Shown here in pieces: positions 10,985-16,605 of a stretch of 28,348 nt of DNA; position 1 is the first letter of the stretch, and each line of letters opens with the position of its first letter. A model generated the notes under the pieces. It ran no database searches, was not told the origin of the DNA, and was given only the letters and a program-made list of their open reading frames with translations. Source of the DNA: Candidatus Heimdallarchaeota archaeon. Its GTDB lineage: Archaea; Asgardarchaeota; Heimdallarchaeia; Heimdallarchaeales; Heimdallarchaeaceae. The translations under genes were made by a program, and so were the position numbers. Location of the stretch: assembly GCA_030668825.1 (NCBI GenBank), contig DAOVET010000032.1, positions 1 through 28,348 of the forward strand, given 5' to 3'.

Positions 10985-11099
10985 TAATGAAGAATTTTCT
11001 TCATTTTTTCTTTATTTTTCAATATTAATCTCTTATTCATATTGATGACAGAAACTTTAAAACCTAGTTTTTACAAGTTTGCACATTATTGGTGATGAA

Positions 11100-12113
11100 A
11101 TGGCAATTCGAATTGGTATAAATGGTTTTGGAAGAATTGGAAGAGGGATTTTTCGAGCAGGATTTAACAATCCAGGTATTGAATTTGTTGGAATCAATGA
11201 TATTGGTGATTCAAAAACTATGGCTCATTTATTGAAGTACGATAGTGTTCATGGTCTTTTTGATCACAAAATTGAAGCAACTGATTCATATCTAATTGTT
11301 GATGATGTAAAAATACCTATTTCAAAAGAAAGGGACCCAGTAAATATTCCTTGGAAGGATTGGGGAGTTGAGATAGTTTTCGAATGTGTAGGATTTTTTA
11401 GAACATTTGAGCTTGCGTCTAAGCACATTGAAGGAGGAGCGAAAAAAGTAATTCTTTCTGCACCCGATAAAGGTAAAGTAAAACCTATTCCTGCTATTGT
11501 GTTAGGGGTTAATGAAGACAAATTCAATCCCACAGAGGATGTTGTTATCTCTAACGCTAGCTGTACAACCAACTGTTATGCCCCAGTAACCAAGGTTTTG
11601 GATGACGCATTTGGTATTGAATCAGGATTTATGACTACTATTCATTCCTATACAACAGATCAAAGATTATTAGACTTACCTCATAGTGATTTACGTAGAT
11701 CAAGATCTGCAGCTCTATCTATGATTCCAACATCTACAGGTGCCGCTACAGCAGTAGGAAAAGTACTGCCACATCTTCAAGGAAAACTCGATGCTATGTC
11801 AATTAGAGTTCCAACTCCAAATGTTTCTCTAATAGATGCGGTTTATACTCTTGGAAAAGAAGTAACTGCAGAAGAGGTTAACAACAAATTCATTGAAGCA
11901 TCAAAAAGCAATCTAAAAGATATCTTAGCTGTTTCTAATGAACCTCTAGTTTCTATAGATTACAATGGAAATCCGTTCTCTGCAACTGTTGATTTACCTC
12001 TAACAAAAGCAATTAAGAATCAAATCAAAGTTGTTGCTTGGTATGACAATGAAACTGGATACTCAACAAGAATGGTAGACTTAGCAAAATATGTAGCAAG
12101 TAAGGGATTATGA
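11100..12113 (+). CDS. gap: Type I (bacterial/eukaryote-type) phosphorylating glyceraldehyde-3-phosphate dehydrogenase
   Basis: 'GINGFGRIGR', 'LLKYDSVHG', catalytic 'SNASCTTNC', 'TTIHSYT', 'IPTSTGAA', 'RVPTPNVS', 'WYDNETGY'. SD GGTGAT precedes ATG 11100, which is preferred over TTG 11079. Confidence 0.97.
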   Translation: MAIRIGINGFGRIGRGIFRAGFNNPGIEFVGINDIGDSKTMAHLLKYDSVHGLFDHKIEATDSYLIVDDVKIPISKERDPVNIPWKDWGVEIVFECVGFFRTFELASKHIEGGAKKVILSAPDKGKVKPIPAIVLGVNEDKFNPTEDVVISNASCTTNCYAPVTKVLDDAFGIESGFMTTIHSYTTDQRLLDLPHSDLRRSRSAALSMIPTSTGAATAVGKVLPHLQGKLDAMSIRVPTPNVSLIDAVYTLGKEVTAEEVNNKFIEASKSNLKDILAVSNEPLVSIDYNGNPFSATVDLPLTKAIKNQIKVVAWYDNETGYSTRMVDLAKYVASKGL

Positions 12114-12116
12114 CAT

Positions 12117-12285
12117 GAATTTTGTACAAATTCTTTAGAAGTGCCTGAAGCACATCATGGGGACGCCACATCCCCTCCTACACCGCCCACATCATCTTAA
12201 GATGCTTACGGTTCGCTTTTGGAAGTTCGTTGGATATAGCCCCGAGGATCACCATAGTAATGGTGCATAGCTATAATCCTTCAAC
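12117..12285 (-). ncRNA. Candidate structured non-coding RNA of unknown family
   Basis: 72/145 G+C over 12141-12285 (hand count) in an AT-rich genome. Multiple stems on the minus strand, G-U pairs favouring that strand, and a TATA box starting 26 nt upstream of the first paired G. Confidence 0.6.
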
Positions 12286-12303
12286 GTATAATCTACACTA
12301 CCC

Positions 12304-12313
12304 TATTTAAATA
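12304..12313 (-). promoter_or_regulatory. TATA box (TATTTAAATA) of the candidate ncRNA
   Basis: Minus-strand TTTAAATA at 12311-12304 lies at canonical archaeal spacing to 12285. It sits between two convergent genes, so no CDS could use it. Confidence 0.6.
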
Positions 12314-12345
12314 CCAAAAAAATGTACAAAAAACAGGTTATAATG

Positions 12346-12711
12346 CTACATTTCTTCTAGACTTTTTATCAAAGCAACTAAGGCTTTGTATAAACAGTCT
12401 GAGCATTCTTTAGCATCAGGATCCATGAACAGTAGAGTTTCTCTTGTGTTTTCATAGACTTTTTGAGGTATTGTTCTACCTCTGAGCTCTATTCTTTTCT
12501 TTTTAGTTGGACAATAAATTACATTTTCATCATCCAAAACCACAGCGTTTAAACAAAATGTAGGGTTAGCAAACTCTTCCAAATCTGCAGTAAGAAGATC
12601 ATCTGGATCATAAAAAGAGACTAATAAAATCATTTCAAGCTCATCTTCAAGAACACAATAAGTAGTATATTCAATCTCTCTATGCATTGGACAGGGTTGC
12701 ATTATCCACAT
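12346..12711 (-). CDS. Small Cys-rich hypothetical protein, possible metal binder
   Basis: 121 aa with 'CPMH', two lone Cys, 'YCP' and 'CSDC'. No overlap with neighbours. Alternative start ATG 12702. Confidence 0.75.
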   Translation of the reverse strand: MWIMQPCPMHREIEYTTYCVLEDELEMILLVSFYDPDDLLTADLEEFANPTFCLNAVVLDDENVIYCPTKKKRIELRGRTIPQKVYENTRETLLFMDPDAKECSDCLYKALVALIKSLEEM

Positions 12712-12817: not shown

Positions 12818-15800
12818 TTATTGTCTTATAGGTGCCCTACTTCTGTAATCGTAGTAAATTTTGGTTATTTCCCCAACAATTTCTTCATTAAAGGTTACAA
12901 TTAAAAGTGGATCTCCACTTGGAGCTTTGTGTCCTAAGAAACCTTCTTCTATACCATCTCTGGTTCCCATCATTACTGTTAGGTTTGAATCATCCTTTAC
13001 AACTACATTCCCCATACCAAGCATTTTGCTTAAGATAACTTTATCTTCATCTGTATGAGCTGTTGTATTTGTTACAATTTCTAGTTTTCTAGCAAATGTT
13101 TCAATGAATTCAGAATCTATCCAATTTAGTCTTGGGCAAATTACTGTAGCAGAAGACTTTGTATTTCTCAAGAGAGACATCATAGTTCCATTAACTTGTT
13201 CGTGACCTGTTACTATCCACATATCTTCAATTGGATTTGGTTCAATTCCTGATCCCAGCGATAAAACACTTTTGATCAATTTCATTGATTCCCCAGTTGC
13301 ATCTAAAGCTCCCCCAATCTTATTTGGAATTGAACTTAGTGTTCCTGAAATACTAGTGTCTACATTTTCAATTTCTTGTTGAGTTCCTTTGATTATATTC
13401 TCTTTAAAACTCATAAGTTTGGAGCTGTAATCATCTTTCTCAGTATTTACAATCTTTGAATCCTCTTGAGCTGCATTCAATTTTTCTGTTAGAGAGTTCA
13501 AATTGGAATCAAATAGGTCAGTTAAAGTTTTTTCTAAATTACTGAGGTCTGCATTAACCGCATCATTTCCGGAAGTTATAGCCTCTGTAAGAGCATCCTT
13601 TGTTCCTTGTATATTAGTTACCAGGGCAGATGAATTTGAATCTGAATTAGTAATAAAGCTATTAACTTGATGAGACATGTTTAATTCATAATCATTCTTT
13701 TCTTTTTCAAACTCATTTTGAATTTCTGTGACATTATTAACAAAGTCAGTTGCCATGCGTTCATAGGATTTCTCTAGATCTCTTTGAACGCTAGTAAACA
13801 TTGTATCAATTTCTGTCTGAGCACCTACTTGAAATTCTTTTATGGAAGAGCTCAAATCGGTTGCAAATGCATCAGAATCAGTTTTAACCCATTTTGGATA
13901 ATTTGCACCAAGCTTTTGAAGCTCTCCCTTAGTAGTTGCAAGTGCTTCATCTAATAATGATGATTTCTCAGGAGAAACATTTAATTCCGCCAATACACCT
14001 TCAGTACCTTCAATAAACTGTTGGACTTCTTGCTCAATTAAATCATTAATCTCGGTTTCAACCTTTGCTGTTTGAGCACTATAATTTTTAGCAGCCTCAT
14101 CTAGAGTGACAGAAATGTCAGTATCAAGAGCCTCTTTCGCAGATTTAAATTCACTTTGCAAAGATTTCATTGTTACATCCATTGAGGAAGTAGCTTTGGT
14201 CACTAATTTGGAATGATCTTCGATGTTTGTCTTGAGTAATTCCTGAAGATTAGTTGTTACTTCAATATTATTCTTCTTCATTACATCAAGAATTTCTTGT
14301 TTTGTTGTTTGCAGAGCTTCTAGACCATCTTGAATCGTCAGATGAATTTCTGTTTGACCTTCATTATCTTCAGTTGAATCTGGAACTTGGAGAAGTTCAT
14401 CTAATGAACCACTTATGGATTTAGTTATATCCGAAAATGCTTTAGATTCAGCTCCTATTACATCAGCTAATGATTTAGTGCTTGTCCCTTGTAGCTCATT
14501 AAATTGCTCTTCATAAATAGTATAAGTTTCTTCAATAGTTCTTTTCATATCATCTGAAGATGCTGTAAATTGACTACTGATTTCACTCCTTGAAATGTCA
14601 AATGATTGGCTGGTTTTTTGAAGGGTATCTATTGTGAATCTTGCTAAATCTTCTAACCTTATATTCATTTTTTCAAATATCTCATTAGACAAAGAATTCA
14701 TTGAATTTGTCAATGTTTGAATCATTTCCTCCATTTTATTTCCAACATTCTCCTTTACTAGCTCAATGTCTCTATTCATGCTTCCGATTAGTTGAGCCAT
14801 TCGTGGTCCCTCTTCTTTTCCAAATACTTTTTGAAGCTGTTTCTCATCTAATCCTTGAAATGCTTGGTTAATCACTTCAATTTTTGCAATTGATGATTTA
14901 AGCTGATCATCTAGCTCTTGTAATCTTTCAATGCTAGCTTGATAGTTAATCTGAACAACATTAGGCACTTCATCTCTAACATCTCTTCCTCTTTTAGAGA
15001 ATTCATCTGAAAAAACTTCAACATCAGATTTGAATTTGTTTTCCTTTTCAGTTATTAGATTTTGAATTGTTTCATTGTTATCCTTAACGTTTTCCTCAAT
15101 ATTAGAGATAACAGTGGCTTTTAATTCATTAATATGAGAAGTAAAGTTTTCTTTGAATTCCTCATGTGAGGTGGCAAACTTTTCTTTCCGAGCTTTCAAA
15201 GCCTTTTCATATTTAGCAGTTGTTTTTGATAATTTATCTAAATACGCGTTAGTTGATTCTCTAAATGCAGTCATTATGTCTTCTACAAATAGTTTGATTT
15301 GATTACTTACGTTTTCAATTGAAGAAGACAGATTTTCTTCAAACAGATTGAAACCAATTTCTATTCCTGAATTAAGTAAAGATAGTAAACTATCGCTATT
15401 CTTTTTGAATTCCTTAAGATATGAGTTTAAATCATTACTCAGTTTAACTTTCATTTCCTCTGTTTTTGCTTCAGCTTGTGTAATTAAATCTCCCAGCTTT
15501 TCAACAGAATCAACTTTAGTTTTATTCAGTAAATCAACAAACTGATTCTCATTCCCTCTCAAAATATTTACCGCTGTTTCTTTTGAATTATCAATTGAGG
15601 TTCTAATTCTGTCTGTTGTTGCGTCTTCAAGTTTTTTCAATTCATCATTTAATGAAATAAGAACTTGCTGTACTGTTACTTGATATTCGTCAAGCTTTTT
15701 CTCATAGTTTGCGATAATTTTGTTTACTGTATCAGAAAGCTTCTTAGAGGAATCTCTCACTACTACGTTTGAATCTGCTGAGATCTTTTTAACAGTTTCA

Positions 15801-16591
15801 TCAGTAACAGTTATAATTACATCTTTTCGTTCTGCTGCTGCTTCTATGAATTCCTGAAGCTGAACTGATAAGCTTTCTTTTATCCCCCCGACTTTTTCAA
15901 GAAGAGCATCAAGCTGTATTTGAGTTCTATCATCATGTTCTTTTTGCAGAAAACCTAGTCTTTCCTCTATTTTTACTTTGAATGAATCATGATGTTCACC
16001 TATTTTGTGAATCGTAGAATCAAAAGAACTAAGAACATTCTCTTTTACTCTTTGTGCAGTTTTTGCAATGGCATCACTGTTTGTTTCTGAAATATTGGAT
16101 GATTCTGATTTTAACCTTTCAATTATTTCAGCTGTTTCAGTTTTTCCTGACGAAATTACGTTTGTTATTGAATCCAAAAATTTAGTGGCAGTTGATGCAA
16201 TTTCAGAAGCATGATCATCAACATTTTCTGTAATGTTTACATGAAATGCTGATAACTGTGACCTGAAATTATTCATTGTTTTATTCCAATCTTCTTTTAC
16301 ATCATCACTTAATGCTTTTAATTCAGTTTCTAGACGAATAGATACATCCTCTGTAAGCTTAATTTGTGGGGGGAGTGGAATGAAATACGATGTTCCCTCT
16401 TGGTTTTTAGCTTTGATTTCTCTAATGTATCCTTTGCCAGCTAAACTATTTAGAGCACTTTGGATTATATTTGCGGGGTGTTTGTAATATGTTTGAATTT
16501 GACCGATGGTTCTAAAACCATATTGAACAATTATTGAATAAACTTGAACTTCATCTTTCGATAACCCAATCTTTTCTAATGTTCCTTCCAT
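12818..16591 (-). CDS. Giant TrmB-like protein: N-terminal wHTH, ~1000-aa coiled coil, C-terminal TrmB effector/PLD-fold-like domain
   Basis: N-term 'LEKIGLSKDEVQVY...ALNSLAGKGYI...YFIPLPP' resembles the TrmB wHTH. C-term 'WIVTGHEQV...LLRNTKSSATVICP...RDGIEEGFLG' resembles the TrmB C-terminal domain. The middle is amphipathic helical. Start is ATG 16591 or GTG 16600. Confidence 0.8.
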   Translation of the reverse strand: MEGTLEKIGLSKDEVQVYSIIVQYGFRTIGQIQTYYKHPANIIQSALNSLAGKGYIREIKAKNQEGTSYFIPLPPQIKLTEDVSIRLETELKALSDDVKEDWNKTMNNFRSQLSAFHVNITENVDDHASEIASTATKFLDSITNVISSGKTETAEIIERLKSESSNISETNSDAIAKTAQRVKENVLSSFDSTIHKIGEHHDSFKVKIEERLGFLQKEHDDRTQIQLDALLEKVGGIKESLSVQLQEFIEAAAERKDVIITVTDETVKKISADSNVVVRDSSKKLSDTVNKIIANYEKKLDEYQVTVQQVLISLNDELKKLEDATTDRIRTSIDNSKETAVNILRGNENQFVDLLNKTKVDSVEKLGDLITQAEAKTEEMKVKLSNDLNSYLKEFKKNSDSLLSLLNSGIEIGFNLFEENLSSSIENVSNQIKLFVEDIMTAFRESTNAYLDKLSKTTAKYEKALKARKEKFATSHEEFKENFTSHINELKATVISNIEENVKDNNETIQNLITEKENKFKSDVEVFSDEFSKRGRDVRDEVPNVVQINYQASIERLQELDDQLKSSIAKIEVINQAFQGLDEKQLQKVFGKEEGPRMAQLIGSMNRDIELVKENVGNKMEEMIQTLTNSMNSLSNEIFEKMNIRLEDLARFTIDTLQKTSQSFDISRSEISSQFTASSDDMKRTIEETYTIYEEQFNELQGTSTKSLADVIGAESKAFSDITKSISGSLDELLQVPDSTEDNEGQTEIHLTIQDGLEALQTTKQEILDVMKKNNIEVTTNLQELLKTNIEDHSKLVTKATSSMDVTMKSLQSEFKSAKEALDTDISVTLDEAAKNYSAQTAKVETEINDLIEQEVQQFIEGTEGVLAELNVSPEKSSLLDEALATTKGELQKLGANYPKWVKTDSDAFATDLSSSIKEFQVGAQTEIDTMFTSVQRDLEKSYERMATDFVNNVTEIQNEFEKEKNDYELNMSHQVNSFITNSDSNSSALVTNIQGTKDALTEAITSGNDAVNADLSNLEKTLTDLFDSNLNSLTEKLNAAQEDSKIVNTEKDDYSSKLMSFKENIIKGTQQEIENVDTSISGTLSSIPNKIGGALDATGESMKLIKSVLSLGSGIEPNPIEDMWIVTGHEQVNGTMMSLLRNTKSSATVICPRLNWIDSEFIETFARKLEIVTNTTAHTDEDKVILSKMLGMGNVVVKDDSNLTVMMGTRDGIEEGFLGHKAPSGDPLLIVTFNEEIVGEITKIYYDYRSRAPIRQ

Positions 16592-16605
16592 TTTAATCAC
16601 TTCTT

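Follow-up and report, generated by a model that had tools for sequence, protein, structure and literature searches.

Between two convergent genes of a Candidatus Heimdallarchaeota genome lies an element of about 230 nt that is most probably a non-autonomous transposon of the TnpB family (IS200/IS605-like, IS1341-type), lacking the nuclease gene and keeping its ends, a TATA-like box and an omega-RNA gene. Its homology to the RNAs linked to tnpB genes, together with TCAT at its right end and TTAT at its left flank, leads us to read it as a TnpB-less, omega-RNA-only mini-element (PATE/MITE-like). Judged by sequence comparison, it is mobile and homologous to the tnpB-linked RNAs, it has a conserved structure that includes a pseudoknot, and it has end motifs in common with tnpB elements. 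The window analyzed was a stretch of 28,348 nt of contig DAOVET010000032.1 (assembly GCA_030668825.1). Its own genome is labelled G000 and relatives carry labels of the type G001, whilst C and L labels denote contigs and loci.

Location and limits of the element

The initial annotation had described a GC-rich structured RNA, read on the minus strand from position 12285, and the sequence there is as it stated. The flanking ORFs at 11079..12113 (+) and 12346..12711 (-) do both point inward, and the G+C peak is real (0.47 at 12150-12299 vs approximately 0.33 in the surroundings). The first of these ORFs encodes GAPDH (Pfam Gp_dh_N and Gp_dh_C), whilst the second had no match in Pfam. Further along the minus strand, at 12818-16600, a 1260-aa ORF has an N-terminal TrmB-type HTH (36 bits), and long stretches of it match apolipoprotein-type helical repeats below the cut-offs.

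The limits of the element were set from an alignment of the 6 copies found in the same genome, which have unrelated flanks, and from empty sites in four relatives (G013, G012, G009, and G018). Similarity among the aligned copies begins at the junction (T)TAT/AACCTG and ends directly after ...CATGTCAT, the sequence outside being unrelated. Taken together with the empty sites, these limits place the element at 12339..12110 on the minus strand (230 nt), without an ORF of its own. Since AT or ATA is present at both element ends, the exact junction can be placed only to within 3 nt. The helices of the initial annotation fall inside its interval of 12117..12313, but the unit itself is thus larger.

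The insertion site is the stop codon of the GAPDH gene (window 12109-12113; empty-site loci L052-L055). In the window, the TGA stop codon of ORF 11079..12113 (12111..12113, plus strand) is made of the last bases of the element. At the empty sites, termination is at a TAA codon that falls within the complement of TTAT, the insertion target, and the GAPDH protein has the same length in both cases.

Copies and insertion polymorphism

We searched 61 genomes, the window's own and 60 relatives, taking E <= 1e-29 as a strong match. The 6 copies in G000 are 81-100% identical. Strong matches occurred in 17 of the 61 genomes, these being 14/25 of the genus, 2/2 of the sister genus, 0/4 of the other genera of the family and 1/30 outside the family; many of the matches sit at contig ends. 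Dispersed copies, which the initial annotation had itself set against its ncRNA call, are therefore present. They do not refute the RNA call and instead place the element in the known class of stand-alone mobilized omega RNAs.

The four relatives with an empty site at the window locus have flanks 95-98% identical to those in the window. At these sites TTAT runs straight into the sequence found 3' of the element in the window, with one base changed. The junction was read at this one locus in the four relatives, the locus of the G005 copy being too diverged in relatives, and it would fit insertion 3' of TTAT without target duplication, apart from a one-base difference, but also a 2-3 bp duplication. 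Insertion polymorphism between genomes with such similar flanks documents recent activity in an Asgard lineage. As expected of a PATE, the element carries no protein gene, is multi-copy and is insertion-polymorphic.

An exact 31-mer of the element core was found in 18 stretches, whose records all have titles of Candidatus Heimdallarchaeota MAGs. It was absent from the viral contigs of IMG/VR. None of three 5'-truncated copies was tnpB-linked. Partial matches in G012 were considered as a longer parent and rejected, as they are truncated by contig ends. A 5'-truncated copy, L024 (G048:C96, from another family), has both flanks in common with L048 (G011:C120), which points to a larger mobile element common to both, to transfer or to mis-binning. 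Copy L044 (G013:C81, 2301-2838) is interrupted near element position 135 by approximately 315 nt of other sequence and may hold a nested insertion. Two fragments in G000, C112:4079-4153(-) and C33:10072-10138(+), show similarity to no more of the element than its left end, TATA-like box and the beginning of the 5' hairpin; the one in C112 is approximately 120 nt upstream of an ORF.

TATA-like box and RNA structure

Covariation was analyzed in 51 distinct full-length copies from G000 and its relatives. The promoter-like motif reported by the initial annotation, TTTAAATA (12304..12311, minus strand), resembles an archaeal TATA box and lies 26 nt upstream of 12285. It reads TTTAAATA or TTTATATA in nearly all of the 51 copies, and the first conserved nucleotides of the RNA follow approximately 26 nt downstream of it. 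The box is predicted to act as a promoter.

The RNAalifold consensus of the 51 copies comprises 7 helices with a total of 49 pairs, and 97.4% of cells are paired. Both sides had changed in 15 pairs, compared with 6.6 ± 1.6 in shuffled alignments (0/500 reached the observed value) and 3-8 in slid controls. Many G-U pairs across the copies fit the minus strand alone, which bears out the initial observation of strand-specific U-G pairs and supports an RNA read from the minus strand. The fold z-score that the initial annotation had proposed as a check was less telling: the single minus-strand sequence (-54.8 kcal/mol) gave z -1.72, weakly better than chance, with 10/200 shuffles as good, and the plus strand gave z -0.58. 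By covariation, however, a structured minus-strand RNA preceded by a conserved TATA-like box is well supported.

The RNA begins with a 5' hairpin domain of approximately 57 nt at 12229..12285 (minus strand, as are all RNA features below), formed by helices 1 and 2, in which 5 of the 16 pairs had changed on both sides. Examples are a pair that is G-C in 43 copies and A-U in 8, and another that is C-G in 26 and A-U in 23. The two helices that had been proposed here, GGAU(U)AUAGC with GCUAUAUCC and CACC with GGUG, thus have covariation support. Only the mini-element has this domain; nothing corresponding to it is seen in the tnpB-linked RNAs of G000. Next comes the core hairpin CCGU...GCGG (12183..12211; helix 3, 12 pairs, 4 changed on both sides), whose inner stem is variable. 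It is common to the tnpB-linked omega RNAs and lies within the nhmmer and covariance-model matches to 19 tnpB 3' ends. The single-stranded motif GUAGGAGG (12174..12181) shows little or no variation among the 51 copies and recurs in the tnpB-linked and solo matches, one of which reads GUAGAAGG.

Towards the 3' end, a GGGG..CCCC hairpin (12159..12175; helix 4) presents the loop GUGGCG (12169-12164). It is followed by a GUGC/GCAC hairpin (12141..12153; helix 6, 2/4 pairs changed on both sides) and by GAAUUU-GUACA-AAAUUC (12117..12133; helix 7), a subterminal palindrome of the right end that could form a hairpin in the RNA, a hairpin in the DNA for use by a transposase, or both. The alignment of the 51 copies supported these three hairpins, and the ACCGU/GCGGU stem with its inner stem, as the initial annotation had drawn them. 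The CUUCC/GGAGG helix of that annotation did not hold, since its 5' strand varies freely among the copies whilst GGAGG is invariant.

ARAGORN found no tRNA or tmRNA in the window, in agreement with the initial reading. A search of the whole window against Rfam 15, one of the checks that reading had called for, gave 0 matches at the gathering score, and at E <= 10 the region 11900-12500 gave chance-level rows only. The same was true at E <= 1 for 13 loci including tnpB-linked RNAs. The RNA family formed by the element and the tnpB-linked RNAs is not covered by Rfam. Contigs over the element from four runs labelled "RNA? (probably DNA)" show differences or other flanks, and probably derive from other copies.

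Homology to tnpB-linked omega RNAs

A profile HMM built from 19 copies was run on the whole of G000. It matched the 6 copies and approximately 25 weaker loci, the latter at HMM positions ~121-189. Most of the weaker matches comprise the core only, that is (A)AAGCG.(U/A)CCG.AAGC, the stem, GUAGGAGG and the hairpin, and the sequence just upstream of most of them, translated by eye, is a TnpB end of the INADVNAA type. The nhmmer E-values at these tnpB 3' ends ranged from 4e-9 to 4e-2.

We then used a covariance model of the 3' half of the element (R1, from alignment A2). At E <= 3e-5 it identified 29 loci in G000, comprising the 6 copies, 19 tnpB-linked loci and 4 solo loci. The tnpB-linked loci directly follow a Cas12f1-like TNB domain. 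This domain has 24 matches in G000, 20 of them in TnpB-sized frames, and R1 was found at 19 of these 20 loci (E 4e-12 to 3e-5). One tnpB ORF that was tested (419 aa) has both OrfB_IS605 and TNB. The tnpB elements of G000 are approximately 1430 nt long and 65-84% alike; most of the omega RNA in them lies inside the reading frame, and the C43 ORF stops 40 nt before the right end. Like an omega RNA, then, the element has homology to an RNA at or overlapping the tnpB 3' end, and by sequence its 3' half is homologous to the RNA that overlaps the 3' ends of the 19 tnpB genes.

Two of the results here count against the mini-element reading. The tnpB-linked RNAs scored 33-59 bits with R1, compared with 114-141 bits for the copies, and no tnpB-linked parent with the hairpin type or the ends of the element was found. 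A strict pattern for a tnpB-linked RNA with the element's hairpin type matched in 0/61 genomes; the control half of the pattern found 16 of the 19 tnpB-linked RNAs of G000 itself.

The solo loci, which resemble omega RNAs and have no tnpB upstream, are C82:6403-6524(+), C105:7939-8032(+), C133:16540-16633(+) and C127:11363-11462(-), the last lying 237 nt from a contig end. The C82 locus has the loop type of the mini-element. Among the other three, mutual similarity extends beyond the modelled right end, and they may represent another solo family. Partial TNB matches (profile positions 14/15-60, 27-35 bits) were seen in four larger-than-TnpB frames of 635-671 aa (C105:44376-44537, C133:6669-6827, C133:8904-9062, and C4:6241-6399). 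The top TNB score in G000 belongs to a 522-aa ORF at C27:1300-2868 (L118:101-1669) that has no OrfB_IS605 match, and neither the HMM nor R1 matched an omega RNA after it.

A pseudoknot at the guide junction

The loop GUGGCG of the GGGG hairpin is complementary at 6/6 positions to the last 6 nt of the element, UGUCAU (12110..12115), which end in the TCAT right-end motif. This pairing was missing from the helices listed in the initial annotation, and RNAalifold picked it unprompted on alignment A2. Complementarity of loop and tail at 6/6 positions was found in 28/28 elements (mini-element, tnpB and solo) in 7 sequence combinations, a count that leaves out one tnpB locus with an offset extract; the tnpB elements have pairs such as GUGAUG/CAUCAU, GUGGUU/AAUCAU and GUGAUU/AAUCAU. 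The right ends of 23 of the 28 were set independently of the model, 6 copies from the empty site or alignment, 11 from the tnpB-element alignment and 6 from BLAST end-points. The remaining 5 (C13a, C82 and three solo loci) were taken from the covariance model, which already held this helix, so that for these the finding is circular. In the cryo-EM structure of the ISDra2 omega RNA, the bases immediately 5' of the guide form a pseudoknot that is a hallmark of this RNA (PMC10097598), and the element has such a pseudoknot.

End motifs and the mobilizing enzyme

Directly 5' of the left end, in the flank and not in the element, lies TTAT (12340..12343, minus strand). It occupies this position in 41/50 copies, in the 4 empty sites and, by our own reading of the alignment, in 10/12 aligned tnpB elements. 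A conserved left-flank motif of this kind is expected of an omega-RNA element, and TTAT is a candidate TAM. The right end is TCAT in 49/50 copies, and the tnpB elements likewise end in TCAT.

The ends also resemble those of a classical MITE, and a rival explanation is that a DDE transposase (e.g., IS630-like) mobilizes the element by its terminal inverted repeats and duplicates 2-3 bp (TA/ATA) at the target, the omega-like core being a decaying passenger without function. By our own count the ends form an imperfect inverted repeat that matches at 17/21 positions with flank bases included, AT or ATA stands at both junctions in 47/50 copies, and IS630-linked TnpB elements with symmetrical ends have been described (PMC10691335). 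Subterminal hairpins at both ends, on one strand, would be expected of an IS200/IS605-family element. A 6-bp palindrome is situated 7 nt inside the right end, whilst at the left end there is no evident hairpin and just TGTACA as a palindrome among T runs, a point against the mini-element reading. Insertion by a DDE-type mechanism that duplicates a short target stays a rival, given the inverted-repeat-like ends, the lack of a clear left hairpin and the AT/ATA at both junctions, though we consider it improbable. The base that follows TCAT is A in 47/50 copies, but in 3/50 it is T, which breaks the duplication, and in tnpB elements it is any base. No match to DDE_3, the DDE family searched, was found in G000. 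Moreover, compensatory changes maintain both the helices and the pseudoknot among copies diverged by up to ~23%, which would not be seen in a decaying passenger.

For a PATE, a resident Y1 TnpA would be expected, and here the element departs from the type: PF01797 was found neither in G000 (90.6% complete) nor in any of the 25 genomes of the genus, an absence that also fits the MITE explanation. Both genomes of the sister genus (2/2) have PF01797, and these also carry many copies of the element. In G035, 14 matches were found, many of them broken by stops. The loci retrieved around tnpA matches in relatives lacked any R1 match (E <= 1) and had nothing that clearly resembled the element ends. 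Cas1 was not found in G000. Three ORFs in G000 have a resolvase domain, none of them beside tnpB. In the two that were scanned the catalytic domain is at the very N-terminus, unlike in IS607 TnpA. One unlikely idea is that these TnpB-less elements, with a promoter-like box of their own, spread by resident TnpB and RNA alone through guide-directed cutting and copying, or else by an unknown enzyme.

The predicted guide

If the RNA passes the right end, the flank at 12090..12109 (minus strand) would be read as a guide, antisense to the last GAPDH codons. This flank differs in every copy. As in an omega RNA, the scaffold stops exactly at the right end, which the empty sites fix within 3 nt, and copy-specific flank follows; we infer that the flank acts as the guide. 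None of the 6 would-be guides had a second perfect match in G000 (a 16-mer was used for the window copy), which fits a selfish and not a regulatory role. The 16-nt guide of the window copy has one match with a single mismatch, at C4:18913(-), where TTAT is 2 nt off the adjacent position; this may be the 3' end of a paralogous gene.

These data bear on a second alternative, in which a solo omega RNA has been domesticated to serve the host and guides TnpB, or a TnpB-like repressor without nuclease activity, to sequences of host or foreign origin. RNA-guided repressors derived from TnpB are known in print, G000 holds other types of solo omega-RNA-like loci, and in the element a conserved TATA-like box of its own is combined with a new 5' domain. 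However, the guide of each copy is its own flank, with a second perfect genomic match in 0/6, and the copies are insertion-polymorphic and patchy among close relatives, so that we give this alternative little credence. A single-purpose host ncRNA, or a 3'-UTR or terminator structure of the neighbors, forming a novel RNA family, would suit the GC-rich structure between convergent genes, the promoter-like box and the lack of an Rfam match, but is already refuted by the multiple copies with unrelated flanks, by the four close relatives without the element at the same locus and by the homology to tnpB-linked RNAs. Accordingly, the independent novel ncRNA of the initial annotation stands as a structured minus-strand RNA with its own box (covariation, 51 copies), and falls as a novel host ncRNA owing to the dispersed copies and the omega-RNA homology. 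A C/D-box or H/ACA sRNA, prompted by AUGAUG motifs, was also considered; no CUGA or ACA boxes were rightly placed by eye, there was no Rfam match, and the link to tnpB led us to abandon this reading.

Proposed mechanism

For a non-autonomous TnpB-family element we propose the following course, in which promoter use at the box, continuation of the transcript into the flank, loading by TnpB and homing are predicted steps. Transcription would start near 12285 on the minus strand. The scaffold of approximately 176 nt would then fold into the 5' hairpin, the core hairpin, GUAGGAGG and a further hairpin, with the pseudoknot between its loop and the terminal 6 nt of the element, the fold being the part that covariation establishes. 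The transcript would continue into the flank and so acquire a guide of 16-20 nt, and one of the approximately 19 TnpB proteins encoded elsewhere in the genome could bind the RNA in trans. By analogy with the published model of TnpB homing, the TnpB-RNA complex would cut a locus free of the element, recognizing TTAT followed by the flank that matches the guide. Repair from the filled copy would then restore the element, leading to its retention and spread.

Significance and comparison with known systems

For annotation, the analysis accounts for a conspicuous GC-rich "orphan ncRNA" in Heimdall-type MAGs, and the R1 model also picks up the guide RNAs of 19 tnpB genes and 4 solo loci, none of which Rfam covers. 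For mobile-element biology, it describes a guide-RNA-only element in which the 5' domain has been replaced and which brings its own promoter-like box, in a genus without a detected transposase for it. For tool building, it offers a compact natural scaffold, TTAT as a candidate TAM, and a set of resident TnpBs with which trans-compatibility could be tested. If spread by TnpB and RNA alone were true, the element would be a natural case of a transposon separating guide RNA from nuclease, the step proposed toward tracrRNA/CRISPR-type trans-acting guides. It adds no new principle, as trans-acting stand-alone omega RNAs have already been published.

Stand-alone omega RNAs are reported to be mobilized, without effector or transposase, in genomes that hold OMEGA systems, and to act in trans (PMC10691335, citing the original OMEGA paper), and PATEs are stated to "often encode" omega RNAs that require the TnpB of other elements (preprint 10.1101/2023.03.14.532601). 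With both in print, the kind of element is already known. A limited search found no paper on such elements in Asgard archaea, although the supplementary tables of the cited papers could list such loci. As these sources describe them, the bacterial stand-alone omega RNAs and PATEs resemble the element in having no protein gene, only ends and a scaffold that stops at the right end, and in being multi-copy beside tnpB elements, with TnpB expected in trans. On the same descriptions, the element differs in its occurrence in Heimdall-type archaea, in its archaeal TATA-like box and ~57-nt 5' hairpin, in the lack of any TnpA found in its genus (25 genomes) and in a left end without a clear hairpin.

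Closer to hand, the tnpB-linked omega RNAs of G000 (19 loci, IS1341-type tnpB-only) have in common with the element the core hairpin, GUAGGAGG, the loop-tail pairing, TCAT and TTAT. Unlike them, the element has no ORF, and its 5' part, 3' stems and left end are unrelated in sequence; its copies are also more alike (81-97%) than the tnpB elements are (65-84%). Classical MITEs are likewise short and multi-copy, lack coding capacity, and show insertion polymorphism and ends that resemble inverted repeats, whereas the element holds a conserved structured RNA gene, the duplication is broken in 3/50 copies and DDE_3 was not found in G000. The ISDra2 omega RNA, as described in PMC10097598, matches the element in its several stems, in the pseudoknot just 5' of the guide and in a guide that is the flank past the right end. 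The partner strand of the pseudoknot is a hairpin loop approximately 55 nt upstream in the element and a region approximately 100 nt upstream in ISDra2. The two are likened by structure, and no sequence similarity is expected.
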